Below, piece by piece: positions 13,627-54,484 of a stretch of 64,000 nucleotides of DNA (the stretch's first letter is position 1; every line of letters starts with the position of its first letter). The notes beneath the pieces were generated by a model that saw only the letters and a list, made by a program, of their open reading frames with translations, ran no database searches and was not told the origin of the DNA. The position numbers and the translations under genes were made by a program. The stretch comes from Amphiura filiformis (Eukaryota), in contig NC_092646.1 of assembly GCF_039555335.1 (NCBI RefSeq), positions 36,859,911-36,923,910 of the forward strand, written 5' to 3'.

Positions 13627-14279
13627 CGTCATGTTTTGCGTCCGACTCTATGGTTCGCGTGAAACTACTCACCAAAGATGACACGAAAATAGAACGTAAA
13701 CGAATGGATCAACTGAAAGTAGGAGATCACGTTGAAAGCTTTGACCCGGAAACCAACTCGGTAGCATTTTCTGAAGTGTACTTCATATCTCATGAAGATG
13801 AAACCAGCAACTCCTCTCGCTTGATAAAGTTAGTGTTCGGATTCGAGGATGAGAAAGAGCTATCTCTTCGTCTGCATTCGAAGCATTTGGTCTACGCGTG
13901 CAGTATTGAGGAGAAAGCTGAACCAAATGTAGCACCCATCACTGATTCCTGTCGGTATCCACCGATGAATCCAGTAACCGCTGGGAGCGTGAAAATAGGC
14001 GATATCGTGTGGCTGAGAAATTCTGCCGGTGAATTCTCGCCAAAACCGGTGATCGACATCGGTGAGTCCTGGAATGGCATTCGACATCCAATGACTCTTA
14101 ACCATTACATCGTTGTAGATGATGTTTTGGCGTCTGTTCATATGTATGATGAAAGTCTATACAGGCAGGTCACGGCTCCGTTGAGGTTTCTGTATGTCAT
14201 CAGCCCGTATATTACCGACACAAGCATTGTTAAGAAGCTGGTCCAAATGTGGGATAATGTTGAAGAAAAATTCTTGTAA
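13627..14279 (+). CDS. Gene 2 terminal exon: Hint (Hog) domain, about 87 percent identical to 1863-2506. Stop at 14277-14279
   Basis: Acceptor tattttaccag|CG, phase 1, compatible with exon D (C+CG=Pro). Same Hint motifs as gene 1. Confidence 0.8.
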
Positions 14280-16849
14280 GGCACAGGTTCTGGATAAATT
14301 TCTATGTAGTTAAGAAAATATAACTCGATTGGTATTAAAGCTAACATCAGCTATAACTATTTGGGTCTCGCGGTCTGGTTTTTTTCTACTTTTTTAGTCG
14401 TTTCTCTTCAGGTTAAACCAAGTTTGAGGTGCAAATACGTACAACACCAATGATAACGTGATAAAGTCAAAGATTCATTTAACACAAACTTCCTTCAAAA
14501 TGAAAATTGCTCAAGGGTATGTAAATTCACGGTCGAACGGATATGTTTTCTTGGAAAATGGAGAGAACAAAAAGTTGTGTCGAACAAAAAATATCGGTGT
14601 TTATTGTTTTAGGTTACGACAAACAAACAAGTTGTTACGCCTTGTAAAGTATACTAAACAGATACAATTTAAATGTAGTAGTACAAAGTGAATATAAAGG
14701 ACAACTTGCTTATATTAAGCAAATAAGTCTTTTAAGATATGATCTAACATGTGTAAGTGGTAAATTACTGAAAGTGGAATAAACAACATAAATACACCGA
14801 AATCAAGCTATTGAATATCGATAATACAATATCATGCAACTTCCTTTGCTGCAAATGATGCAATTACAGGTACCTTGCGGGGCAAGTTTAGTTTTTTCGG
14901 GGTGTATTGTTTTAGTTTTCAACAAACAAGTTGTTACGCCTTGTAAAGTATACTAAACAGATACAATTTAAATGTACTAGTACAAAGTGAATATAAAGGA
15001 CAACTTGCTTATATTAAGCAAATAAATCTTAAGATATGATCTAACATGTGTAAGTGGTAAATTACTGAAAGTGGAATAAACAACATAAATACACCGAAAT
15101 CAAGCTATTGAATATCGATAATACAATATCATGCAACTTCCTTTGCTGCAAATGATGTAATTACAGGTACCTTGCGGGGCATGTTTGTTTGTACATCATT
15201 TGTGTACATTTTGATTTATTTCATTTTTGCTGAACCATGGAATGGTATCGGCCTGTGTTTATTAGTGGCTTGCTAAGTTACTTACTGACTAACATTTTGG
15301 TCTGAAATGGGCATATTTAAAAATGCCACGAATGTATGACCCCCGAGTGGTGTCAAATGAAAGAGGAAAAAGTAAAGAATATAACAAAAACATTTCCCCA
15401 CCCGGGAGTGACACTCATTATAAGATTCTGGTCAATATTTCTATTTTGGGTCTATATCTCGAAGACGATATGACCCCGGGTGACAGTGGTATACCATAAA
15501 CTACTGCCATTACCCCATGGTTCAGCTATAGTGCGGTAACCGTTCTAGTTACCAAGTGTATAACCGAATACAGTAAAATTTACTTTCAATTTATTATGAT
15601 TTATCTCCAAATCAAGTGATTTTACTAAAATGATGTACGAAAAAAAAAGATTACTGGCGGGGTGCTTGGTTGTGTTGACAAAAAAACACCATAATCATTG
15701 TTCTTAATATCTGATATTACGCAAGCGAAATAGAATTTATCTAGATGATCTGCAACTCATCAGTGTACAGATTTTTCACACAAAAAGCACCAAATGTTTC
15801 CCAAATCGAGGTCTTTAAAGGGCACCGTCATTCAGAGAGAATGCAACCGGGAATACAAAATAATAACAAAATAAGGAATAAAAGCAATTAATGTAGTATT
15901 TTAAGCATAATTATAACCATATCATATAACACCGATATTGCCACAATCATAATGTGTGATTCTTATGTGTACTTTTGATGACTGTAAACTCGTACAATGA
16001 AATAAAATAAAATATATTGATATTAAATCATAACATTATTGTTTGGTCAATTATTTGTTACGTCAATGTGTATCGATGTTATGCTTACGGGTACATATGT
16101 ACGCTGACCTAGTGATCGGTGTTCATGTTAAATACCAGTAACCCGGACAACAATTTTTCGTTGTTACAACGTCGTATAAAAGTAATCTACGTTGTACGAC
16201 GTAGATATAACGTCATTATGACGTTATTGCGACGCAAAGTTGTGAAAGTATAATTCACACGACGTAAACAACGTCATTACAATGTCAAAAGTAGTAGTGT
16301 TAGACTTTTGGCACGTTTAATCAATAATCAATAATCGATCGAGATATCAATAATGAATCAGTAAATCAAAGTAAACATGATTCCACGAACGTTTTAATAG
16401 ATAAATTGATACTTAATTGGTGCTCCCGGTGACTAGTGGAAAATTCTTCCTTCATCCAATCGGAAAAGTGTTTATATCGAACGAAAGTTAACACCTCCCG
16501 CTAAAAACACCTTTTTTCATTACGTCAACAGATGACGTAATTCAATGTTTATAGTAAGGTGAATGTGGTAAAGCTGTTGAAAACGGCCTCTTCACGCACA
16601 ATTTTTGACCAAGGTTTAGGTTTTAAAAGTCAAAACCCCGATTGATCCTTACAATATTTTTCAAATTTTACGTCATTAAATGAAAGAGCACCCTTACATT
16701 GCCCACATACTAGATTCATTTCAATGAGCAATAGCCAATTCTCTTTCAATTGCAAATTTGTGCAAAAAGTTAATATTTTCACCTGTTTTGTCATACGGTT
16801 GTAAATTCAATGAACAATGACTTTGCTAAAAGAAATTGATATGTCACAC

Positions 16850-17869: not shown

Positions 17870-18100
17870 AAACTAATAAATGAGACCATCAAACAACCGA
17901 GAGTTGGACCACACTTGGGTCAGTATTGCAAGGACGATGCAAAGCAGAGAGATGGAGCGGTACATAGATGGATTAGACTTGGAATATCTCTTGTGAATAG
18001 GGATGATAGATGCATTCTTCCATTGGCTTGGGAAAACTCCCTTGGGGAAGCAAAGCTCAAACAGAAGGCTGAGTGGTTTTGCGATGCACTCCATCAGCCG
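17870..18100 (-). mobile_element. LINE reverse-transcriptase N-terminal fragment
   Basis: VFPSQWKNASIIPIHKRYSKSNPSMYRSISLL resembles RT domain 0/1 of the LINE at 44.3-45.3 kb (GVFPNALKSALVTPILKK...NYRPISNL). Confidence 0.55.
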
Positions 18101-19483
18101 CTATTCTATCATTTTTGTGTGTGTCCGTAATATCTCGAAAAGCCTATAATGGGGATGATTGTATGGACCATCATTCCTTTATTTAAACATTTGGGGCTTC
18201 ATTCCCCCGAGATATACGCCTACATGCTCTGTGTACATGTAGGCCTAGTGAATAAAATAATGTTGCAATTCAATAAAAATAGTTGAAAGTGAAATCTTAC
18301 TTCGCCCAGACTAGACAAACAAGAGCGGGATGTGCGTGGGGAAATTTCCGTACCAACTCGGTCGCGGACTATCGGGTATCTACTGAAACTACCATATTAG
18401 GCCAAGTAAAAATAAAAATATGTTTTTCGTCCGAGTTTTTGAAAATTTGGAAGATGAAAGGCTTTTTAGTGTCCATTTTTTATTGGAAAACGACGCTAAA
18501 TACCTGTATTTGGCACCATATTTTGGGTATTCGACATACAGATTGATATCTGAGAAAAAAGGAGGAGGCCCTTTTTATTCTATTGTTTTGAGAGGTAGGC
18601 CCCTCTAGTGATCACAAAACTCTTTTGAAATGATGTATTATGCATTTACAAAGCCGTAAAATAAGTTTCAACCTCTGAAACATATTTTTCAACAAGTTAT
18701 ACTGCAAGTTTACAAAATAAAAAGAAATTTGAAAAATCTTCAAAAAAGGAGGAGGGCGCAGACGAGAAACATGTATTTGTTTTTTAATAGGCCTAACACC
18801 ATAATATGAGATCTTCAATTGTTTATAATTAGGCCTAAGTCTGTTCGTCCCAGGTATCATGAACACGTTTGAACTTGGCTGCAGCTGGCACAAAAACACA
18901 CTGACATGGCAACACGTGATTCATGTATAATTTTATTTGTTGGACAATTCTTGAAAATGCGCAATAACTAAATAATGATATAATGGAAAACAACAAATTA
19001 AAAAAATCAATGGTGTGTGGATCCAGAGTCCCCCTTGCGGGATGGGCGGTGGATTTGGATCAACCCTTCCCTCCCCCACTTTTTTTCTTTTAGATTCTTG
19101 AGCGCCCTGGGTAGAAAATTTTAGTCAACCTTTTCGGGCTGCTGATTAAGGGGCGGCAAACTTTATTTTCTCCAGCCCCCCCGGGTAGGATCGCCCACGG
19201 TGCGCCACTGGAGGTGGTTATAGGCATGTTTAACCAATCATTGGAGTAATTTCAGCTCAAGTTTAAAACTCGCACGCAACAGCGGCGCGACCCTGGATCC
19301 GCGACTGATAATTTGGTGTAACTTTGGTCATTGTGATGTGAAAACAATACTTTTGAAACTAGGCCTATATACTTTAGTTTCCAATTATTATTTTTGAACC
19401 ATGCGGGACAAAACAAACAAGTACATGTAGGCCTAATGATCCATTACAGGGTCTCACAATAACGCCTACTAACATGACTAACC

Positions 19484-20033
19484 TCCCCCGGGTGCGTAAT
19501 TTCTTTCTGCAACCATAATGGGCCGCAATGCGATAACACATACCGGTAGTACATACATGTAAATTACATTGTAATTATAGGCCTATGAGGCTAGATATAA
19601 CACGAGTTTATTGCCATTATTATTTCCTCTTACTTAATAAAATAAAAAGAAATCGATAGAATTGAAATTCTACAACGGTTTACCTGGGGTTTCGAACCCA
19701 CAATCTATGTATCCATAGTCTAATGCCTACACGACTGTGCTAGGATTCGTTGTGCCAGAAAGGTGTTTGTTTATGATACTTAATGATTACGGAATAAAGT
19801 GCATACAAACAATATACTATTACTAGTATATTAATAAATACGAATATAATCCTAACCCTAACCCTTACCCTAACCCCTAACCCTAACCATAACCATAACC
19901 CCTAACCCTTACCCTAACCATAAGACCCTAACCCTAAGACCCTAACCCTGACAATAATGAACCTTGCCTCGGACTATGCGGTGAGTGATATATTGCGGCC
20001 CATTATGGTTGCAGAAAGAAATTAAGCCCCCCG
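19484..20033. mobile_element. Element bounded by about 40-bp inverted repeats (..gggtgcgtaatttctttctgcaaccataatgggccgcaa / ttgcggcccattatggttgcagaaagaaattaagccc..). Contains a tRNA-like segment (minus, about 19650-19730) and the telomeric-repeat tract
   Basis: 32-bp perfect inverted repeat read directly. tRNA-like T-arm GGGTTCGAAACCC on the minus strand. Confidence 0.55.
19850..19952. repeat. Interstitial degenerate telomeric repeat (CCCTAA/TTAGGG)n, about 100 bp
   Basis: cctaaccctaacccttaccctaacccctaaccctaacc... Confidence 0.9.
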
Positions 20034-21849
20034 GGTATTTGTCTTTGTTGAAATGTTATATCTCATGACTTGCATTATTTTGCTTTATAATTTAGCATAT
20101 GAATTTGTAACCTTTGTTCATGTTAAATATTATTGGCACTTTTGTTGTAGGGCCCAGCGCCCAAACTTTTTGGTCGCGACGCGCCACTAAAACACTTTTA
20201 GTGGTATAAACCCGCAGTTCAGGGAGATGGAGGACAGTGGCGTAGCGCGTGTCATCCTATGGGGGACCATTGAGGGAACCGGGTCTGATAGGGGAGGGGC
20301 AACAGTGGCGTAACTACCGGGGGGGCACGGGGAAACGTGCCCCGGGCACCACACTTAGAGGGGCGCCAAATTGATAAATTGATTCATCGATTGATTCATC
20401 GATTCATCGATTCTGCGCCCCATCCAAAGGATGAAAGTTAGGCACAAAATCAACTGAAAGAACATTTTAAGACCGATATTCAACTTCTAGTAACCAAAAT
20501 TAATTAGTGGTAGGCCTTATTTGTCCGAAATTTGGCGCGCTCCGCGCTCAATTGTTTCAAGAATGGTATGTATCCTTAGCCCTGTGTGCCACAACATCTA
20601 GCTACGCCACTGCCCGCGTCTGAGATATTCTCGGGTAGGGGCGGAAGGGGCGCCAATTTTGTTTCTTGTCCCGGGCGCTATCAACCCTAGTTACGCCACT
20701 GAGGGGCAAGCCGTATTTCAGCAATGGGGTTTTCTCAATTTTAAAATCGATTGGTGCCTGTCCCTATGACGCTACGCCACTGGTGGAGTATGCATGGGTG
20801 AGACTCTCGGTCTAAAGTTTATGTCGTCTAACTTACTACATTTAGGTCTATACAGCTAATACAAAGTTTGCAAATGCAAGCTAATAATTCATACGATTTG
20901 TAGTGGTTTCAAGTTGCTCATTTCAAAACAAGGAACAAAATGAAAATGATAAATGAAAGTTGCTGTTCAAATTGAAAAATGGAGACCTTTCGGTGACAGA
21001 TGAAATCGTAAAGAAAGGTGTCTTTGGATGACAAATCATGTGTTCGAGAAAAATATGGGGTCTTTGGCTGACAACGATAGCTAACGATGCTGAAAACGCG
21101 GGTTACCTACAACGTCGTCTTCAAAGTGGGAGTGTCTACTCCCCGGTTGTTCATATTATTAATAATTCATTACTAATAAAGGAGTCGGAAGAGGTTACAA
21201 ATTGTCTCAATAGAGTCATGCAATCCTATTTTGAGAGGGATTGGGTTCCCCAAAACAGAAAATATTGCACACCGGCCATGCAAATAACCAGTGGATGCCT
21301 TAAAATTTAGGGGGGGAGGGGAGGCGAGCATATTTTGTTCCGGTTCTTTTGCAATTTTACACTCTTTGGGCTATAAACTTGGTGTCACATGCTAAAACAT
21401 ACAGAGGGCAATTATTGCTCTGTTTTTCTTCTGTTGTATAATTTTAGGGGGGGGGGGTCGGACACTACCTATAATTTAGCGGGTCTTGACCACCCCCTAT
21501 GCCAATAACAGGGTGAATGGACATACATCGCCTTTTCCAAAAACATTTCCTCAGTACCTAGACTGTTTAGTTCCAAGTGACTGAATTTGCACATATTACT
21601 CATTTCGCCATAAAATGAAATTTTCCTTGTCATTTTTTTTTACAAAGTTGCATTTTCGTAATTCCATGACTTAATTCTATAACATTTATTTCCTGAATTT
21701 CCATGACCCATAATCAAAATTATATGACTATGCCACCTGACTATGCCATGAAATTTTTAGGTCTTTTGGGGAAAAAATAGAGTACCTTCAATGACACCAG
21801 CTAAATACACTTTCAGGGCAGAGTAATGGGAGAGAACACGGACCTTTTC

Positions 21850-22337: not shown

Positions 22338-23360
22338 ATGTCAAAATTATGCACAAAACGTCCTTATATTTTAAAATGGCAAGACTTTCACGCTTGTATA
22401 GATTTTGATACTTGTGCTAATATTGTTAGATCTCTCATCATCTCCCGTCTAGACTACTGCAATCTTCTGTTAAATGGTATCAAACAAAAAGATTTGAATC
22501 GTTTGCAGAAGCTCCAAAACAAATGTGCCCGGCTGATTTACCAACAACCAAAATCTTGCCATATCACTCCCTTGCTCACTGACTTGCACTGGCTCCGTAT
22601 TGATGACCGCATCAAGTTCAAACTTCTCCTCTGTGTGTATAAGTCACTGAATGGACTCTGTCCCCAGTACATGAAAGACTGTCTGGTGGTGAAAAAACCT
22701 CGTCTTGGGTCAGTAACAGAGGATGATTTAAGCACTTCCCAGCAAGTCTTGCGGTTAGCACAGCTGTGTGAGTGAACACACACACCCACTGCATACACAC
22801 GTGCATGGTTAAATTTGAATTTGGACAGATATATTTACAATAAAAACACCTTCTAAAGGTTGGTCGATTTCACATTTTATGTTATCTACAGAAGGTGTGG
22901 ATTATCCTTCATGCATACATCACTTTAGATCTGAAATCGACCAACTAATAATGACACACGGGCAATTCTAAAACAACATCTTTTGCACAGAGTTCAATGG
23001 GATTTGAAAAGTAAAGTGGCAGTTGAAACTCTAGTGATAACACTTTTACAGTGCATGATGGGGCTTCCTTAAATCATCCTCTGGGTCAGTAACCACCCGT
23101 TCTTGTCACAACATGAACCTTGAGGTCCCTAAGACACATAAATGTGCTGGCGACAGGGTCTTCTCAGTGGCTGGCCCCAGAGCTTGGAATAATCTCCCAA
23201 ATCACATTCGCAATTCTCCAACAGTTGAAGCCTTCAAATCTGCTCTCAAAACTCATCTGTTTCAGATTTCCTATGTCTAGTTTTCTTGATTTTTGCTTCT
23301 TTGTTTTTATTTTTATTGCGCTTTGAATCCAGCGGTAAAGGCGCTATATAAGTGTCGGTA
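22338..23360 (+). mobile_element. 3' fragment of L2-like LINE ORF2 (..ISRLDYCNLLL.. then ..RVFSVAGPRAWNNLPNHIRNSPTVEAFKSALKTHLFQ) with a MITE nested at 22716-23083. 3' tail ..ggtaaaggcgctatataag
   Basis: Conserved L2/CR1 C-terminal motifs on both sides of the MITE insertion. Confidence 0.75.
22716..23083. mobile_element. Second copy of the cagaggatgatttaag-TIR MITE, perfect 9-bp TSD ggtcagtaa, inserted inside the L2 fragment
   Basis: TIRs and identical 9-bp flanking repeats at 22707-22715 and 23084-23092. Confidence 0.85.
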
Positions 23361-33884: not shown

Positions 33885-35405
33885 TTACTGTATTTCATAC
33901 ACAACAAAGAATTTCTATCAATTTGAAATTTTCGCTTGACAAAACCAGTAAGTTTTTACTTTTACTCTAATATTTCGTCCTACACGTCCGAGGACTTCTT
34001 CAGATGTGAAACATCTGATCCACTTTCCCGGGAAACTGACTTCCGGTTGTGATTACACAGCCGTGACATTAGTCACGGCTGTGTCTTTTTTCTTACAGGA
34101 TCTTCTTTCTTCTTTCTTCCGTGACATTAGTCACGGCTGTGTCTTTTTTCTTACAGGATCTTCTTTCTTCTTTCTTCTTCTGCCGACCATTACATTTGCT
34201 CTAGCATTTACATGTATGCATCGATTTCGACCTAACTTGGTCACTATCATCACTGACCATGCCCCTACATGTTGTATGAAATTTGTGGGATCAAAGGTCA
34301 CGTAGGGGTCACAGGGGTCAAAAATGTGATTTCAACTCAAAATGCTACCTCTCCCACAAATTTCACAGGACAGTAACACCACTTGCACATATGCATTGTT
34401 ATTACCCAGCGTCTATAAATCATACACAGAATTGAGGTCAAAGGTCGTTAAGGGGTCACTTCCGGTAAAAAACAAAATTTCTTCAAAATTTTTACTTAGC
34501 TAAGTAAAACATAGGAGAGTGACGGTATGTGCACACATGAATTATGTTTACCTAATGTATATGTGGTATTTATTTATTTGGGGTCAAAGGTCATTAAGGG
34601 GTCACTTCCAGTATAAAACGAAATAACTTCAAAAAATTTTATAAGCTAAGAAAAACATAGGAGAGTGACGGTATGTGCAAACATGAATTATGTTTACCTT
34701 ATGTATATGTGGTATTTTTTTTGTTTGAGGCCAAAGGTCATTAAGGGGTGACTTCCGGTATAAAACGAAAAACCTTCAAAAATTGTTATTTGATAAGAAA
34801 AACATAGGACAGTAACGGTATGTTCACACATGAATTGTGGTTACCCAATTCATATGTGGTTTTTTTATTTGGGGTCAAATGTCATTAAGGGGTCACTTCC
34901 GGTCTGAGACGAAAAACCTTCTGCCACAACATAGCAAAGTGGTGCCACATGCACCCATGCATTGACATTTATAGCCAATGTCTATGGGCATTTTCATATA
35001 TTTTGGGGTCAAAGGTCATTAGGGGTCACAACACGGCTGTGTTCGTGGGTTAGACCACAGCTAAGTCTAGTTGGTCTTGTATCCCGTCTTTAAAAGTGGG
35101 TCATATACGGGACTTAGGAAATAAGTGCCTTCCTCTCTATTCATGGTCTTTGTCCCCCTCTTTCTGATCTCCATCGCTTCTCGTACTTCTCTGGATCTTC
35201 TGATATGATCTTTTCCAAGTATCTTGGAGTCCTCCCAGACTGGATACAAGACCAATCACAACCGGAAGTCAATTTCCCGGGAAAGTGGATCAGATGTTTC
35301 ACATCTGAAGAAGTCCTCCGACGTGTAGGATGAAATATTAGAGTAAGTAAAAACTTACTGGTTTTGTCAAGCGAAAATTTCCAATTGATATGTCTTACAA
35401 ACCTG
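33885..35405. mobile_element. Non-autonomous TIR/foldback element with about 170-bp terminal inverted repeats enclosing a 5-copy 125-bp tandem array (34420-35040)
   Basis: 33890-34060 is the reverse complement of 35250-35400. Internal ggggtcaaaggtcattaaggggtcacttccggt.. repeats. Confidence 0.75.
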
Positions 35406-37430: not shown

Positions 37431-38869
37431 TTAAAGTAGCCCAATTTCATTCCAGTTCAACCATCCATACACCCCCTATGAAAGACATGACCTACACAGG
37501 GGGTGTAGATTTCAAATAGAGCCACCTGTTCAGGTAACCCCATTTGAAATTCACACTCCCTGTGTGACAGATTAAGGTCATGTCTTCCATAGGGGTGTAT
37601 GGATATCAACTGTAATAGTCTAAATTTTGCACTAAATATCTGAATTTGGCAGAATGTGGGGGGGGGGGTCAGCACGGCCCTACCCAAACCAAACTGCACT
37701 TTTGACACTTGCTAAGTAAATACAGGATTGCAAACATAGTAATTACCTTATCCACTGAGTTTTTCTTACCTTTGGCCGTCGTCCATCTCTCCAGCCCCTT
37801 CTGCCAATTCCTGACTTGCCTGAGCCTCGAGGCTCCTTCAAACCCGCCTCGCCTCGAGCTCCAAACCCGCCTGCGCCTTGAGCTCCAAAAAACCCGCCTG
37901 CGCCTCGAGCTCCAAACCCCATCACATTGAATCCAACCTGATAAAACATTCAATTCAAAATAATTATGTTAATATATTTATTTATAAAATTTACATACAA
38001 ACAAACAAAACAAGCAACCAAACAAAATTCAGCAAACAAGTCCACTGGTATATCAGAAACTGGCATTAATATAATAGGCTATTCCAGATGAAATCCATAC
38101 ACCCCGATGGAAGACACAGGGAGTGTGAATTTCAAATAGGGTTACCTGAATGGGTGACTCCATTTGATATCTCCACTCCCATTGTGGGAGATTAAGGTCA
38201 TGTCTTCCATAGGGGGTGTATGGATTTCATCTGGAATAGCCCAATCAGAAATTGCATAAGTAACATATACCGTAAAAGTGGAAATTTTTTGTGGTACATG
38301 AATTTTTGTGCTTTTCGAGGGTAACACAGGTACAGCGAAAATAAAAACACTTGAATATGGTCTTTTAATGTGTAGGTCTACCGTATTTCATCAAATAGTC
38401 GCCCCCTCAAATAAACGCCCCACCACTTTTTTCAACCAAGACGTTTCAAAAATGCCGGTATTTCCATGCTATCTTGTGTAGTAAGCTTACCAAGTTGCCC
38501 ACATGGTCGATAATAGCGTCACTTTTGGCGAAAATCTGGATTGGAAACCCGGAAGTGAACCCGAAGTCAGTGTTTCTAGTTCATAGTTCGTCATTTTATT
38601 GTGAGTTTTAAGTTTATCTAATGATTTTAACAGGAATTATCGTTCTAAAATTGACCTTGAAAAACGCCCCCTTGGGAACATGTAACCCCCAGGGGCGTTT
38701 ATTTGACGAAATACGGTATTTAAGAAAATTCATAATCATAAAACGAAAAACTAGCAATATAGATCAATATCGGCAAAGCGCGTAAAATCACACACATGAA
38801 AATTACTACTTTTACAGTACTCAACTCTATACTCAATCCATTAACATGCATAGGATCAAGCCTCACAGA

Positions 38870-39470
38870 ATTCTAAAATTCCCACTTGCCCGCTGGGCAT
38901 GTCCACATAGAAATCTACTTGCCCGACTTAATATTTTACTTGCCCAACTCTATAGCCCAACTCTATACTCAATCCATTCAAATGCATAGGATCAAGCCTC
39001 ACAGAATTCTAAAATTCCCACTTGTTCGCTGGGCATGTCCACATAGAAATCTACTTGCCCGACTTAATATTTTACTTGCCCAACTCTATACTCAATCAAT
39101 TCAAATGCATAGGATCAAGCCTCACAGAATTTTAAAATTCCCACTTGCCCGCTGGGCATGTCCACATAGAAATCTACTTGCCCGACTTAATATTTTACTT
39201 GCCCAACTCTATAGCCCAACTCTATACTCAATCAATTCAAATGCATAGGATCAAGCCTCACAGAATTTAAAAATTCCCACTTGCCCGCTGGGCATGTCCA
39301 CATAGAAATCTACTTGCCCGACTTAATATTTTACTTGCCCAACTCTATAGCCCAACTCTATACTCAATCAATTCAAATGCATAGGATCATGCCTCACAGA
39401 ATTTAAAAATTCCCACTTGCCCGCTGGGCATGTCCACATAGAAATCACTTTCCCTACTTAATATTTTACT
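38870..39470. repeat. Tandem repeat, about 120-bp unit x5 (..atgcataggatcaagcctcacagaatt.taaaattcccacttgcccgctgggcatgtccacatagaaatctacttgcccgacttaatattttacttgcccaactctata..)
   Basis: Direct reading. No unique spacers, so not CRISPR-like. Confidence 0.9.
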
Positions 39471-41166
39471 TGCCCAGCTCAGTTCCAATTTTGTATGCAT
39501 AAAGTTTACAAATTTCGAATAGTCGATACTGCAATTGCCAGACGGACTAGGTAAGGTACGATTTTAGGGCATCTTCTACTGCCTGTTGCTTTGAGTTGGA
39601 GATAACAAAAATACTATGGCGTTTTGGGTCAAGCTGGGAGAAAAAATCCCAAGTCGACCTAAAATATCGTATCGCATACGATAGACCACCTAAGTTATCG
39701 TAAATCGGTTTCTCCCAGGTCTACCGTAAATTTTGGGTTGTTACATTCGGCCTGCAAACGCCAGGATTTTTAGCCAGATCGACCCAGTCGATCTCGACAA
39801 GCATGCAAATAGGCCTATACATACCCGCACGTGCCCGACCATGGCGATATACATGACAAGTATAAACCATTGTACAGCGTTCAGTCATCATACTTTCGCA
39901 AGCGCCGGTGACTTTTACGATATCTGTTTGTCTTGGCATCTAAATTAATTCACAGTCATAAGCCTAGGCCTACTCTATATTCGTATTTATTAAAGTAGGC
40001 CCACAGAGGCAAATTTAAGGAGATATATCCGGGGGCACTCACATGTTAAGGTGGTGCGGGTATGTGCGGCGCTCAAGGGTCCCTTTCTCAGGCTCTCCGG
40101 CAGTTCCTTAAGCCCCACATTTGGATCTGCTCAAATTTGGAAATAATTTAGAAATTTTTTTTTTTTCTGCCTATAATTTGGCCCTAATTTCAGTTCTTCA
40201 AGCCCCTATTTTGCCCGAAAATCAGTTCTTAGTTCCCAAAGTTTGGCGCTCCACGCCGCACACCCCTACCAAAATTTAAGTTGAGTGCCCCCCCGGGATA
40301 TATCATACTTCAAGTTTCCTAAGTTGCGTCAACACCATCATGATATAGGCCTAACATGCCTAAGCTTAAGCTTACATCCAAGTTCACATGGACGCGTACT
40401 GCGAGTCTGTGACTCGATGTTTCAGACTTGTGAGAAATAAATTATGAGAAGAGGTCAAAAAGGATCAAATAAAATAATCCAACAAAGAATCACCCTGCCT
40501 AAGTGCCGGACATATGCCTGCATGTTTTATATTATTATCCACCACGAAAGGAGTGCCAATTTCTATTAGCCTAAGCTGTCTTTCTATCAACAAGCGCAGC
40601 ATCTCCCATCTTGACCAATTTGGCAATACTAGTAGTACTTTTGCATGGTTTCGTTTGCTAAATGAAATGCTGCAAATGTTTTTATTCTTCTTGTTGGAAG
40701 TTCTTGATTTGTATAAATATATATATATATATATATATTTTCATATCGAAAAGTGCATAATTCTAATAATATCTGTCATTTTAAAAACCCATTCAGTGAT
40801 CCCAGCGCGAGTGTAAAAAATAAAATTGTTTATAAATTGCTTAAAAGTTAAGGCTAAGTCATTCAAATTGTCATTCGGTATTTTTGAAATGAACAAATTA
40901 AAGATTTGGCAAATAACAAAGAAAACAGCAGAATGGACGAAGTAGAAGCCCCACTCAAATGCATGTAACTAATTTATATACTGTCAGTTATATATCTGAA
41001 TTTGGATGATTTTTACGATCATCCGGATGAGCAAATCACTGAATGGGCCTTTATATCCCTCTGTTGTTGGTTGCCCGGCATCAAATTTTGGTTGTCTCGG
41101 GCAGCCGGGCAAGCCATTCTGTGAACCCTGCATGGGATATAGAGGGCAATGCATACCTTTTCATTG

Positions 41167-41489: not shown

Positions 41490-41870
41490 CAAACTTAGCA
41501 AGTTAGCTCAATCGATAAGGCGTTCGACTATGGTGGGAGAGGTTGCGGGTTCGAACCCTGGTGGTGCCTAGTATGTTCTCGTGAAAAATTGAGTTAGATT
41601 GAGTTGCTAATTGTCTCGTTGTAACCCGTACGAAACTCGGGGAGCTGATCCTGGTTGCAAAGGTTATTTGTGGATTGTCTAGGGTGTGCGCTCTTGAAGC
41701 AGCAAAGTCCCTGATTTGTTGTTTAATGGTTTATGGAATGTTGTGGGCCATAGTGATCAGCGACAACCTGTAAAGTGTGCTGAGGCTTGTGGAACAACGT
41801 CTGTGCCTGTGCGTATAGTGCACTATAAATCACTGCGCTTTTTTTTTTATATAAACCATTTTACAACATT
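41490..41870 (+). mobile_element. tRNA-derived SINE (tRNA-like head with GGTTCGAACCC T-loop, 3' tail ..gcgcttttttttttatataaa)
   Basis: tRNA-like but imperfect cloverleaf. Tail related to L2-like LINE tail at 23300-23350. Confidence 0.5.
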
Positions 41871-43269: not shown

Positions 43270-46200
43270 TATTATTATTATTATTATTATAACACATTTA
43301 TAAAGCGCATAAACGTAAAAAACATCTCAATGCGCTAACAAGCAAAATGGCAAAAGCAACAAACAAAGAGTACTCATTACATTGCAAAATAAATAATGTG
43401 GGAAAAACATGACAAAAGTTAAACAAGGAAAGCAATTCTGTACAGGTGGGTTTTTAGCTGCGATTTAAATTGAGCAAGATTGGGTGATTTATGGATCTGT
43501 TCCGGGAGGCGTTCCACAGTATTTAGGCGGCAACAGCAAAAGCCCGTTCACCATAGGTCTTTGTTCGGGAGCGGACAATTTGCAGATGGTCATTGGGACG
43601 CACATTACCTGACCTAAGGGCACGAGGTGGAATATAAAGGGTGATCAATTCAGACAAGTATGGAGCAGCAATACCGTTGAACTCCTAGTCTGTGAGGAGG
43701 AGGATTTTGAATTGAATTCTCTCCTCAATTGGGAGCCAGTGAAGTTGGTCGCGAAGACTTGGAGTTATGTGATCCCGCTTTTTTGTAAGTGAAATTAGAC
43801 GAGCGGCCATGTTTTGGATTCTTTGGAGTTTGTTTATATCTTTCTGTGGGAGACCGTGGAGGAGTGAATTGCAATGATCAAGCCTGCTGATGACAAAAGC
43901 CTGGATGAGTTTGTGAGTGGAGTCCTGGTCAAGGTATTTGCTTGCAGCTTCCCAATCTTGCTCAATGCAAATGTAGCGCCGCGGCACAAGTTATTGACAT
44001 GCTTGTCCATCCTAAGATGTTGATCAAGAACTGCACCAAGATTTCTCACTTGGGGTGTAGGATGGAAAGCAGCATCACCCACACTGATAGAAGGCAATTG
44101 ACGAGGCATTGCAAAACGAGAAGTGAAATGAATAATTTCTGTTTTGCTATCATTTAAAACAAGAAAATTAGAGGACATCCATAATTTTATGTCCTTGACA
44201 CAATTCTCAATTTTCTCTATAGCGCTGTCCTGATTTTTGACATTGAAACTGATATACAGTTGAGAATCATCAGCAAACTTCATACAGGAGAGTCCATGAG
44301 CAGTAATTATGCTCTCCAGGGGGCAGTATAGAGAATAAAACAAATGGGACCACACACCGACCCCTGTGGCATACCATAATCTATCTCAACAGGATGAGAC
44401 AACACTCCATCAACAAGGACACTTTGACTCCTGTTTTGAAGATACGAGGAGAACAAGTTGAGTGCAGAGCCTCCGACACCATAGCGTGATTTCAGACGAT
44501 TAATGAACACCTTATGGTCTATGGTGTCGAAGGCTGCAGTTAAGTCTAGGAGGACCAAAATGGTCTCACCACCTTGTTTATCAAGATCCATGAGGATGTC
44601 ATTATACACACGAGTTAGGGCAGTCTCAATACTATGGTACTGCCTGTACGCCGACTGAGAAGAAGCAAAAAAATTGTTAGAGTTTAAATACTCAACATAC
44701 TGCTTCATAGCACAGCGCTCAATGACCTTACTCAGAAATGCCAAGTTAGAAATAGGCCTGTAATTTTTCATTGTTTCTGGGTCGAGACTGGGCTTCTTCA
44801 GAATCGGCGTAACAAGGGCAGATTTCAGAGCATTGGGAAAAACACCCGTTTTAAGAGACATATTGGTAATTGTAGTGATATGTGGCAAAAGCAAGTCTAG
44901 ATTGTCTGCTATCAAACAAGCAGGAAGGGGATCAAGAGAACATGATTTAATTTTTGATCCCTTGATAATTTCAAAAACCTCGTCTTCGGTCACTGGACAA
45001 AATTTGGTAAAAGAGCTACTACACGATTCCTCGTTGAGCCCTGCAACAGAGCAATGACTCTGTTGTTTTGCAGCAAGAGTACAACGGAGAGCCCTAACTT
45101 TGTTGTCGAAAAAACTCTGCAAAATCTTGGACAAGGTTCTCCTTAGAGCTGTGGGAAGGGAGCACCTGTTTTGGTTTGTGCACAGACAATCTATCAATGA
45201 CACGGAAAAGTTGTTTTTGGTCACAGTTTTTGATTTCAAGTTGATGATATTCTCTCTTGGAAGCATTAAGTGCTTCTCTGTATACTTTACATTTTTCAGT
45301 AAGTATTTGTTTGTGAACTGTCAAACCCGTCTTTTTCCACTTGCGCTCAGCTGCACGTTTAACACGTTTGAGGCTGTGGAGGTTCTCATTGTACCAAGAT
45401 GTATTTGGTCTTGGAATAATACTATGTGTAGTCAATGGGGCATGGTTATCCAAGACTTCACTTAAAACTGAGTTGTAATTACTAACATATATGTCTAAAT
45501 CATTACAAGGATCATTGAGATTAGAAGACAGAATATCATTACGAAATTCTTCAGTGTTTATTTGGCGGATCTTGCGAAACTTGATCTGAATACGGCGCAA
45601 CTGGAGGACGAACAAGATTGACATTAAACCTGATAACATAGTGCGGTAAAGGCATAGTATGCACCACATGAACGCCACCTATGCAGTTGTTATTCTCATT
45701 AGTAATGAGAAGATCAAGCCAATGTCCTGCAGTATGCGTTGGTTCAGATACAAGCTGGACAAGACCTGCTGAGGCTAGGATCTCATTTAAGGTTCTAGTG
45801 TCACTTAAGTCAGGTATGTCCATATGGAAGTTAAAGTCACCACAGATGATCATGGGTGTAGTACACAGACATGCAGTTTCAAGTAAGCTGTTGAATTCTT
45901 GGAAGAAGACAGATGGTGGAACTTTGCTACACTTGCTGGGCGGTCTGTAGATGGTTATCAGCTTCAGATGATCTTGCATTCCTGAGGTGATTGACAATTC
46001 AAGGCAATCAGATGATTGGAAACTATGTTTTTTCTCAACAGTTTCAAATCCGTCACGGAGGATAACACAAATGCCTCCACCTCTCTTGCCTAAGCGGGGA
46101 AGTGTGTGGAATTTGTAACCAGGGAGAGTGTTTGATATGTCTGCAAAGGCATGATCATCTCGGCTATCACCATAGAGCCATGCTTGGTTAGTGCAAATAT

Positions 46201-46700
46201 GTCCAGTTGCTCAGATTCTATGAAATCACCAATGTCAGTGATTTTGTTCATCATTGATTGTGCGTTCCACACAGCCATTTTACACGCGCTGGATTTACTT
46301 TGATGAACAGTGATAGGATGGGTTGGTTTTAGGCTCTCTGCAGTAGACTTTTTTCCTCGTCTAGTGGGCTTTTGGGCATTTAGACCAAGGGACTTGATCT
46401 TTTCCCAGTCAGCTTGGGCAAGTCTAGCAGTAACAGAGTTGTACTTGAGAAGTTCTTTCCTAGTGTATTTGACAGGTCCACACATTGTTTTGATGATGTA
46501 GTCAATTTGATTAACAAACTGATAAGTGGATACTTGAGAGTGGTAATCAATGAGATGAGTACTCACTTGAGAGTTAGACTGATCACAACTTGAGATGGAA
46601 TCAGTTGTTGTCACAGATAATGCAATAATCAATATTGCAACACTGTAGTAACCAGTATTATGTAGTAGCCATTGGCAGTTTTAAGCTTTCCCAGATGAAA
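43270..46700 (-). mobile_element. CR1/L2-like non-LTR retrotransposon, near full length but frameshifted (ORF1-like region, apurinic endonuclease, RT, C-terminal domain). 3' end with (ATT)n-like tail
   Basis: Minus-strand ORFs. Endonuclease (AVWNAQSMMNK..DIFALTKHG; ..ICGDFNFHMD..). RT (..LLDLTAAFDTIDH.., YGMPQGSVCGPICFILY). C-terminal ISRLDHCNSLL motif. Six broken ORFs, so inactive copy. Confidence 0.85.
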
Positions 46701-50520: not shown

Positions 50521-50609
50521 AGCACACCTACACTAGCTACAATCAAATAGTTTTTGATGGGTCCTAATTAGGATATTGAATACTACAACCCAGGAAAAAT
50601 AGTGGAGGG

Positions 50610-50990
50610 CGAGTTAGCGCAGCGGTAGTTCCCTCGCTTTGCACCACTGAGGTCCCGGGTTCAAGCCCGGCGCGCCCAAGGACTCATGTGCACTTGGTTT
50701 ATCCCGATTCCATGCTCGCTCTCGCAGGTTTTCTACGGGATCTCCGGTTTCCTCCTGCTTTCAAAAAAAAATCGGTGATATAGTTGTTTGGCTATCAAAA
50801 CTTCCTTCACCCAATGGAATTTGAGGAGCTGCATAGATAATTGGTGGATGTTACAATCTAAGTGCGGATAGGTTTTGCGCCAAGTTCGGCTGCAACCAGC
50901 CTAGTTGATGCGATCTGATTGTGATGATTCACCATGGCAGCGGTTACAGCGCTTTGATCCTCTAAGATCCGGAAAAGGCGCTATATAAAA
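50610..50990 (+). mobile_element. tRNA-derived SINE: head gagttagcgcagcggtag...tcccgggttcaagcccgg, internal A-run, 3' end ..cagcggttacagcgctttgatcc..ggaaaaggcgctatataaaa shared with L2-like LINE tail
   Basis: A-box/B-box-like tRNA motifs. 3' terminus homologous to 23290-23345. Confidence 0.6.
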
Positions 50991-51803: not shown

Positions 51804-53021
51804 CTTTCTTCTTTGTCTTCTCTACTATCAGTGAATCTTCTTACTGGTGGTTGGGGCACACCTTGTGTAGATTCAGGTTTTCCAAGCTTCTTGGTTACAT
51901 TTTCTGAGGGAATTGATTGTTCTTCATAAGAACGATAAGAAGCATAAGCATATGATCTGAAAGCTTTTCTTGAGGGAACTGATTGCGTACTGCCACGATC
52001 AAGTGATATTCCTGATGCTGCAGGAGGTCGTGCTGCTTGTGCTTTTATAGGAGCTGATGCCCTTTGTCTAGATGTTCTTGCTAGTGCTGCTGAAGGGGAA
52101 CGTTTGGCTTGTGTCGGGCTTGTGCTTTCGTAAGCAATGCCACGAGCAAGCAGTGACCGAGGAGATGCACTGTAAGCTGCTCTGTCATATGCAGGTGGAA
52201 GAGGGGAGGTGCACCGCCAGGAGCAGATGGTGGAGGGGGAGGTGCACCGCGACGAGCAGGTGGTGGAGGAGGTGCACTATAAACTGCAGGTCGTGGAGGG
52301 GGAGGTGCACTATAAGCTGCAGGTGGTGGAGGGGGAGGTGCACTATAAGCTCCAGGTGGTGGAGGGGGAGGTGCACTATAAGCTCCAGGTGGTGGAGGGG
52401 GAGGTGCACTATAAGCTCCAGGTGGTGGAGGGGGAGGTGCACCACCAAAAGCAGGTGGTGGAGGGGGAGGTCCACAACTACCACCAGGTACACCACCAGA
52501 TCTAAAAGCCGGAACTGAACTGTACGGTTCTAATTTATGGAGACCACTTACTGTAGGTGGTGATGGTGGTGGTGGTGAAGCTTGTTGGGCCATTTGAGGT
52601 GGGAAACGTTGAGGTGCAGAAAGAGCGGGCGATTTAGTTACAGACATGGAAGGTGGAGGTATATACTTAAAAATCATACGAGTTGGTGAAGGTTGGTCAT
52701 CATCGTCATCAAATAGACCGAAACCCATATCATCATCAGAATCATAGTCAGATTCCTCATAATCTTCATCCTCTATTTCTTTTACTGCTGCTGCTGCTCC
52801 ACCTGCTGAATTGGGTGTTGGGGATGGTATAGTGGGTGATGCCGATTTCTTTTTCTTCTTTTTTGATGTTTGAGGTGAAGCTAAATCTGATTTTGTGAAT
52901 GATGACTGTTCATAGCTCATAAACTCAGTGTCTACAGACGCTAAATCTACAAGACCAAGTTCTTCAACTTCTTCTGGTTGTAAGCAAACATCTTCATAAT
53001 CATCATCAAAATCAGCAGGTG
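51804..53021 (-). CDS. Large exon of a proline-rich protein. Acidic N-part with DDDMGFGLFDDDDD, then eleven 33-nt repeats encoding GAPPPPPPGAYSA (FH1/WASP-like polyproline), then Ser/Ala/Tyr-rich tail. Reading frame shifts by 1 nt near 52203-52206
   Basis: Acceptor tttatttaccag|CA (53023-53022) and donor AG|gtaag (51803-51799). Long ORFs in two frames joined by a single missing G in the run at 52203-52206 (other repeat units have five Gs). Confidence 0.6.
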
Positions 53022-54484
53022 CTGGTAAATAAATAACAAATAAATAAAATTAAAATAAATATATACCGTAACATTCCTGGTATAAACCCACCCTTCTAGA
53101 TGGGTGATTTCACTCTAAAACTGGGGTAGGCTTATAATCAAGGAGGGGCTAGTACTTTTTTTTTTTTTTCAATCTTCCAAATTTGTTTTACATTTATGCC
53201 TGATGCAACCATCTATGTCAATGTTTTATATATAGAATGAAATTGTTTTATATTTGTTCTTAAATGTGAGAGCAAAGTACAGATTTGATTTGGCCAATAT
53301 CAGTACTATGGTACTATACCACAGGGGTCTGTTTCCCAAAAAAGAAATTGGGCTTTAACCCTGGTCGAAAGAAAAGCATTTAACAATTCACTAGTTACGC
53401 AAAACTTGCAATACAATAGGCAAATTTTAGCTCATCCCCCCCAACACCTCCCCCCCTTTTTGCTCTGGAAAAATTGTTGGCACTGCCACTGAGATAATTT
53501 GTGATCGTTATTTGTGAAGGGTATTTTAAGTCCCTGGACACAACTGGTCATTTAACAGCATTTCTGATTGGTTGATAACTTGAAATGCTTATTTCAATTG
53601 CCAATTATGACCAGGCTTTTAAGTTATGGTCAAACTTGCATTTGCAGGTGTTCTTATTAATACCCTCCTTGATTGGTTCAAAATTGGACACAATATTCGT
53701 TTTGGCCAATCGGCAGGTAGTTCTCATAGGGTTAAGACGGCCAGACTAGTTCTGAGATACTGGTGATTAAAACTTGCATAATATACAGAAAATAATTTGA
53801 AAATTCACTCGTTTTATTAACTGAAATTTAGAAGATATTTTCAAGTCATATTTGTTCGATATTTCTAATATTCTGGCTGCAAAATACTGTCACAAATGGC
53901 ATCCCCCACCGAGCATTATTGTTGGGTGCACAAACGTGCAGTAATTAACTGTCCCCCAACTAGCATCGTAGTGTCGTGGGCCTGGTAGTGATTGAGATTT
54001 GATTGCCACTGAAAGTTTCCAGATCATTGCTATTTACACCAAATAACATCTTCCCGTCAATTTAAATAATGGACTATTCCATCTAAAATACACACTACCC
54101 CTGTGGAAGATTTAGCTAAAGTCTTCCACAGGGGGAGTATGAGTTTCAAATAGAATATACAATTGGGTAGCTTCCATTTGAAATACTCACTCCAGTTGTG
54201 GAAGATATAGGTAAAGCTATAATACAGGGGGAGTATGAGTTTCAAATAGAATATACAATTGGGTAGCTTCAATTTGAAATACTCACTCTAATTGTGGAAG
54301 CTAGATAAATGTAAAGCCATAATACAGGGGGAGTATGGGTTTCAAAATGATTAACCCTGACCAATTACATTTGAAAAACTTGACATACTACGTCCTCCTA
54401 TGGAACATTATTTCCAAAATCTTCAACAGGGGTAGTGTGGATTTCAACTGGAATAGCCCAATGTACCCTAACGAACAAACAAAC

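Follow-up and report, generated by a model that had tools for sequence, protein, structure and literature searches.

A probable 534-bp non-autonomous DNA transposon carrying a tRNA-derived stretch and a degenerate telomere-like array in Amphiura filiformis

The telomere repeat of echinoderms is TTAGGG, and Nergadze et al. are said to have described, in 2004, short interstitial telomeric sequences that were inserted at break sites (cited in PMC9498494). The Drosophila Foldback element makes a 9-bp target duplication. Mobile elements that bear telomeric repeats are represented by the telomere-associated Penelope-like elements Athena and Coprina, which encode a reverse transcriptase, carry the repeats at the 3' terminus and have no terminal inverted repeats (PMC4522978). 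Among DNA transposons, the length of the target-site duplication is 4-10 bp in MuDR, 8 bp in Merlin, 9-10 bp in AcademH and 4 bp in piggyBac, with TA as the duplication of Tc1/mariner (PMC10045372). Here, we describe a locus at 19494-20027 of a 64-kb stretch of A. filiformis DNA (the window; positions are counted from its first letter) that we consider probably to be a single insertion of a 534-bp non-autonomous, MITE-like class II DNA transposon. It resembles the short interstitial telomeric sequences in having a short TTAGGG-type array that is internal and not close to a chromosome end, and it differs from them in that this array is degenerate, has a higher-order structure and lies within a putative mobile unit, not directly in unique DNA. 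The likeness to Athena and Coprina is that of a mobile element bearing telomeric repeats, although the A. filiformis element is non-coding and has its repeats in the interior.

The A. filiformis genome has a size of 1.57 Gb with 59.3% repeats, and it has been described as the most rearranged among the sequenced echinoderms (PMC11310086). A repeat burst 10-15 Myr ago, consisting mainly of DNA transposons, is reported with ~2% divergence from consensus (PMC11310086). The window has a GC content of ~37%, compared with 36.67% for the genome.

With respect to the ends of the element, we observe terminal inverted repeats of 36 nt at 19494-19529 (plus strand, GCGTAATTTCTTTCTGCAACCATAATGGGCCGCAAT) and 19992-20027 (minus strand, reverse complement GCTTAATTTCTTTCTGCAACCATAATGGGCCGCAAT), which are separated by 462 nt and are complementary at 35 of 36 positions (97%), the one mismatch lying outside a perfect part of 33 nt. 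This pair of arms is by far the best inverted repeat across 16-24 kb. A sequence-only reading of the same DNA had reported a perfect 32-bp inverted repeat, and this 32-mer is indeed found without mismatch at 19497-19528 (plus) and 19993-20024 (minus), at exactly two sites in 64 kb, with two such matches in none of 100 shuffles. The element ends read GCGTAATTTC... and GCTTAATTTC..., and the terminal sequence of the 534-bp element is GCKTAATTTCTTTCTGCAACC. The unit had been placed at 19484-20033; a bracketed unit does exist, but its bounds are corrected here to 19494-20027, flanked by 9-bp duplications. It had also been proposed to form a hairpin, and a stem is predicted, although this stem is nothing other than the two ends pairing with each other and adds nothing to the description of the element.

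Both 36-nt ends are directly abutted by the same 9 bp, CCCCCGGGT, in direct orientation and without mismatch (19485-19493 on the left and 20028-20036 on the right), a target-site duplication that goes beyond what the sequence-only reading had reported. When random position pairs were drawn from the same window, 300-700 bp apart and with the same boundary freedom as for the element, a flanking direct repeat of at least 9 bp was found in 76 of 200,000 pairs, or ~4 in 10,000. The motif CCCCCGGGT has only three sites when both strands of the 64 kb are counted, where 0.06 would be expected, and the third of these lies 300 bp upstream of the element, which means that the motif is locally enriched and counts against the duplication. 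A repeat tool also read the outer flanks as part of a 44-nt, 93% inverted repeat, an extension that arises because the CCCGGG core is a palindrome; taken as an inverted repeat, the outer 8 nt agree at 6 of 8 positions, versus 9 of 9 as a direct repeat. The empty target could be reconstructed as ...AACCTCCCCCGGGTATTTG..., and no paralogous copy of it was found within the 64-kb window.

Inverted ends with a directly abutting target duplication indicate an insertion made by a transposase, and the transposon reading put forward earlier is therefore backed, and more strongly than before, by the 36-nt ends together with the perfect 9-bp duplication. The good preservation of the ends and of the duplication, the former nearly and the latter fully intact, also fits the recent burst of DNA transposons in this genome. 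A one-off local rearrangement, in which repair or replication produced an inverted duplication of ~36 nt and no mobile element was involved, appears unlikely. Such an event would be in keeping with the lack of any further copy in the window or in the scanned collections, which do not contain the host genome, but it would not leave a perfect direct repeat of 9 bp precisely at either outer boundary of the inverted repeat, and the interior of the element lacks symmetry and bears no relation to the flanks. Neither a local inversion nor an inverted duplication yields the combined footprint of inverted ends and 9-bp duplication.

The exact position of the ends bears on a second alternative, namely, a Tc1/mariner-type (Stowaway-like) MITE with 30-nt ends (ATTTCTTTC...) and a TA target duplication, whose palindromic nature would add 2 nt per side to the apparent length of the perfect repeat. 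The perfect inverted repeat does start with TA on the left and end with TA on the right, and this superfamily as a rule duplicates TA (PMC10045372). We nevertheless regard this assignment as quite improbable, since it leaves unexplained both the perfect CCCCCGGGT repeat that lies 3 nt past the perfect inverted repeat on each side, which would arise by chance in only ~4 in 10,000 cases, and the extra GC/GC pairing beyond the TA.

For an insertion with a 9-bp duplication, Mutator/MuDR-like is our best guess at a superfamily, still unproven, with AcademH or Merlin as alternatives. The guess follows from the length of the duplication, that one character alone, which falls within the 4-10 bp range of Mutator/MuDR (PMC10045372). 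Host-derived fragments between the ends are a further likeness, to the Pack-MULE type, whereas ends of only 36 nt are short compared with those of classical plant Mutator elements, there are no subterminal repeat arrays, and no MULE transposase is linked to the ends. AcademH and Merlin resemble the element in duplication length only (9-10 bp and 8 bp, respectively; PMC10045372), and the usual 8 bp of Merlin fits the 9/9 match less well. With MITEs in general, the element shares its size of 534 bp, its non-coding nature, its AT-rich interior, its terminal inverted repeats and its target-site duplication, and it departs from them in its atypical cargo of a tRNA-like module and a telomere-like minisatellite. 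It differs from Foldback in that its ends are simple and 36 nt long, not long arms of tandem subrepeats that form most of the element; the only further internal inverted or subterminal repeat found in it is a 9-nt palindrome.

The element is non-coding. Its longest stop-free frame has 53 codons, for which reason it is classed as non-autonomous, and the longest ORF touching it (55 amino acids) extends beyond its bounds. No transposase ORF of any DNA-transposon superfamily was found in the 64-kb window, and thus no autonomous partner was identified there. Judging from how class II elements are known to behave, a transposase from a gene at another genomic site would act in trans by binding the 36-nt inverted ends, would excise the element and would rejoin it into a target cut with a 9-bp stagger, and repair of the stagger would have duplicated CCCCCGGGT on either side.

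BLASTN within the 64-kb window, with 18500-21500, the 36-nt end and the internal segments as queries, revealed no further copy of either the ends or the interior; these searches returned self matches and one tRNA-like head at 41.5 kb only. An exact scan with three 22-24-mers from the end gave no hits in JGI metagenomes, IMG/VR and prokaryotic genomes, collections that do not hold the host genome. There was likewise no trace of the element on ENA contig ERZ25070167, which is from another species and whose Hint coding sequence is ~76% identical at the nucleotide level. In the literature, we found no described element with these end sequences and no described MITE with telomeric repeats as cargo.

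The interior of the element is a mosaic, each segment of which, with the exception of the tRNA-like stretch, is without a relative elsewhere in the window. With approximate boundaries, and from left to right, it consists of an AT-rich segment at 19530-19681 (minus strand; ~30% GC as measured over 19530-19679) with no similarity elsewhere in the window, a tRNA-derived stretch at 19682-19743 (minus strand), an AT-rich spacer at 19744-19846 (~27% GC as measured over 19746-19846) that contains the 9-nt palindrome at 19811-19832, a degenerate telomere-like array at 19847-19949 (minus strand), and a unique subterminal segment of 42 nt at 19950-19991. A run of five T residues at 19647-19643 on the minus strand, ~35 nt downstream of the tRNA-like part, resembles a Pol III terminator.

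Tandem Repeats Finder describes the telomere-like array as a 103-bp (TAACCC)n array with period 6, 16.2 copies and 79% matches, which bears out the earlier claim of about 100 bp of degenerate CCCTAA repeats. A period of 25 nt fits the array better, with 86%. On the minus strand, the first eight units read TCAGGG, TTAGGG, TCTTAGGG, TTAGGG, TCTTATGG, TTAGGG, TAAGGG and TTAGGGG, followed by TTATGG, TTATGG, TTAGGG, TTAGGGG, TTAGGG, TAAGGG, TTAGGG and TTAGG as the last eight; TTAGGG is thus seen six times among 16 units, accompanied by the variants TAAGGG, TTAGGGG, TTATGG, TCTTAGGG, TCTTATGG, TCAGGG and TTAGG. Since echinoderm telomeres consist of TTAGGG, the array is of the telomere type for this host, and it is the sole TTAGGG-type array in the 64-kb window.

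Telomeric repeats at an internal site could also be read as a scar that an ancestral chromosome fusion, subtelomeric recombination at this locus or the healing of a break by telomerase left behind, with the inverted repeat being incidental. The presence of ~100 bp of TTAGGG-type repeats at an internal position and the highly rearranged karyotype of the host lineage (PMC11310086) would be in line with such an origin. The array is unidirectional, however, with 16 units, no head-to-head junction, a higher-order structure and degeneracy already in place; unique sequence and the inverted ends part it from the flanks, the unit as a whole has a target duplication, and the 64 kb show no further telomeric or subtelomeric signal. 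We therefore consider a scar extremely unlikely, and the earlier suggestion of a footprint of telomere-associated recombination is not upheld, given a short, degenerate array in one orientation inside inverted ends and a target duplication. For the transposon reading, the nearly undamaged ends and duplication, next to an array of only 79% regularity with a 25-nt higher-order pattern, suggest that the degeneracy of the array probably predates the insertion, and the telomere-like tract thus probably arrived together with the element in an already degenerate state. That the element had captured telomeric repeats, as previously proposed, is a reasonable inference drawn from the single copy at hand.

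In the tRNA-like stretch, the minus strand contains the T-arm motif GGGTTCGAAACCC, and a match to the B-box pattern GGTTCGANNCC lies at 19688-19698, with the B box reading GGTTCGAAACC (19698-19688, minus), a perfect match to a pattern that has only two sites in the 64-kb window against 0.12 expected. The A-box consensus is TRGCNNAGTGG, and an A-box-like motif (TAGCACAGTCG, 19742-19732 on the minus strand) matches it at 10 of 11 positions, the starts of the A and B boxes being 44 nt apart. Local alignment to human tRNA-Lys-CTT, which served as a reference point only, gives a score of 52, compared with 16.4 +/- 3.3 for shuffles (~10 standard deviations above). ARAGORN recognized no tRNA in this stretch with default or relaxed thresholds, Rfam gave no tRNA match at E<=10, and in the acceptor stem, paired by hand, only 2 of 7 pairs form. 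By its sequence, the stretch at 19682-19743 is thus tRNA-derived and not a tRNA gene. The earlier claim of a tRNA-like sequence holds with respect to the B box and the tRNA-Lys alignment, but a functional tRNA gene is rejected on the negative ARAGORN and Rfam results.

A second tRNA-like head is located at 41504-41558 (plus strand), with 73% identity over 55 nt and a perfect B box, and it is also not recognized as a tRNA by ARAGORN or Rfam. Both heads have an odd GACTATGG in the anticodon region. The related head points to a dispersed type of SINE-head or tRNA-pseudogene sequence in this genome, for which the genome paper lists SINE/tRNA-Deu-L2 (PMC11310086). The element resembles tRNA-derived SINEs in its A and B boxes, in the loss of the cloverleaf and in the dispersed related copy at 41.5 kb, and it differs in having a head of ~62 nt only, with no body, tail or target duplication of its own identified, and in that this head is antisense to the plus strand and embedded in a DNA transposon. 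As a separate observation, ARAGORN called a tRNA-Cys(GCA) at 50607-50678 (plus strand), for which neither E<=10 nor the gathering threshold of Rfam yields a tRNA match, and this call probably represents a SINE head or a pseudogene.

These features raise the question of whether a tRNA-derived SINE or tRNA retropseudogene was the mobile part, inserted where the inverted repeat and the telomere-like tract already existed. The A and B boxes at tRNA-like spacing, the downstream T5 run, the related head at 41.5 kb and an 8-bp repeat, TACTTAAT (19631 and 19777), around the tRNA-like part would fit such an insertion. Against this, TACTTAAT is the only direct repeat flanking the tRNA-like part, two 8-mer matches were found where about one is expected by chance (a rough estimate, the zones being AT-rich), and no A-rich or simple-repeat tail is present. 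Moreover, a SINE would account for ~62 nt of the unit only and leaves the inverted ends and the 9-bp duplication unexplained, and we hold it to be very unlikely as the mobile part. A SINE could instead have inserted as a nested event inside the DNA transposon; with the flanking 8-mer at chance level, a nested insertion at the tRNA-like part is unconvincing.

Unrelated interiors usually arise by abortive gap repair with template switching or by MULE-type capture. The cargo of this element most likely consists of filler or captured DNA picked up at the origin of the non-autonomous element, not through events at this locus, and the route may have been abortive gap repair with template switching or a Pack-MULE-like capture.

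The element lies between GC-rich blocks (19020-19300 and 20150-20800), in which recurring motifs had been noted. On the right side, this holds: CAGTGGCGTARC has five sites at 20235-20782 against 0.12 expected (20235 and 20303 on the plus strand; 20601, 20690 and 20771 on the minus strand), and a 62-nt palindrome is found at 20360-20421. The left block, by contrast, has only a degenerate variant, GGTGCGCCACTGG (19199-19211). Common to both flanks, and in both orientations, is a degenerate unit of ~65-70 nt, AAGGGGCGSCAA...TTTCT...CCCGGG...TRCGCCACTG, at 19147-19215, at 20645-20705 and, reversed, at ~20296-20380; the alignment of 19147-19215 with 20645-20705 scores 38, compared with 16.7 +/- 3.5 for shuffles. 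No long similarity joining both flanks across the element was found. With a repeat unit of their own and no such long similarity, the GC-rich blocks are rejected as part of the element and constitute a separate repeat. This repeat (19019-19300 and 20150-20800) may be foldback-like, with the 534-bp element inserted into or beside it.

Elsewhere in the window, two intronless Hint-only "warthog-like" ORFs at 1838-2506 and 13650-14279 (both plus strand) enclose an ORF at 7480-8292 (plus strand) with the H-x-E...PCxxC signature typical of AID/APOBEC-like cytidine deaminases, which scores 23 bits for Pfam APOBEC_N, just below the cut-off of 25. Three A. filiformis proteins annotated as "warthog protein 4-like" or uncharacterized share 91-93% identity with the Hint-domain ORF at 13650-14279, all other protein matches of which are at <=78% identity, and a deaminase-plus-Hint neighborhood is also present on an ENA contig (L001, the ERZ25070167 contig mentioned above) from a different species. 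The surroundings of the element are rich in repeats. A frameshifted LINE with endonuclease and reverse-transcriptase domains is located at 43834-46632 (minus strand). On either side of the element, ORFs at 17873-18094 (minus) and 22338-23280 (plus) look by eye like reverse-transcriptase fragments; a Pfam scan of 17873-18094 and 22338-22775 gave no match. Long-period tandem repeats are found at 14622-15190 (297 bp, 1.9 copies), 34432-34921 (147 bp, 3.4 copies), 38822-39480 (136 bp, 4.9 copies) and 54077-54346 (96 bp, 2.8 copies). Furthermore, a proline-rich ORF at 52081-52920 (minus strand) has a 33-bp tandem repeat (8.8 copies at 52190-52475) as its backbone, and its residues 29-70, close to the N-terminus, form an acidic stretch like the C-terminal tail profile of 60S acidic ribosomal proteins, with a Pfam score of 28.0 bits versus a cut-off of 28.1.

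Taken alone, the locus amounts to routine repeat annotation in a genome with ~59% repeats, and the feature is ordinary in kind, a new non-autonomous DNA transposon with mildly unusual cargo. It offers a clean case of telomere-type repeats inside a mobile DNA element, and since such repeats can sit in a mobile element, transposon ends should be checked before a TTAGGG tract is read as a scar of chromosome fusion or healing. We think it rather improbable that the element belongs to a multi-copy burst family, all copies of which carry the telomere-like tract and the Pol III-type module and have seeded both genome-wide. If this were true, the seeded interstitial telomeric sequences could bind telomere proteins and be prone to breakage or recombination, and modules with a Pol III promoter and insulator-like character would be seeded across the genome. 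An abundant family of this kind would be a vehicle by which tRNA-type Pol III modules and tracts of telomere-like repeats spread through a lineage whose chromosomes have undergone unusually many rearrangements.
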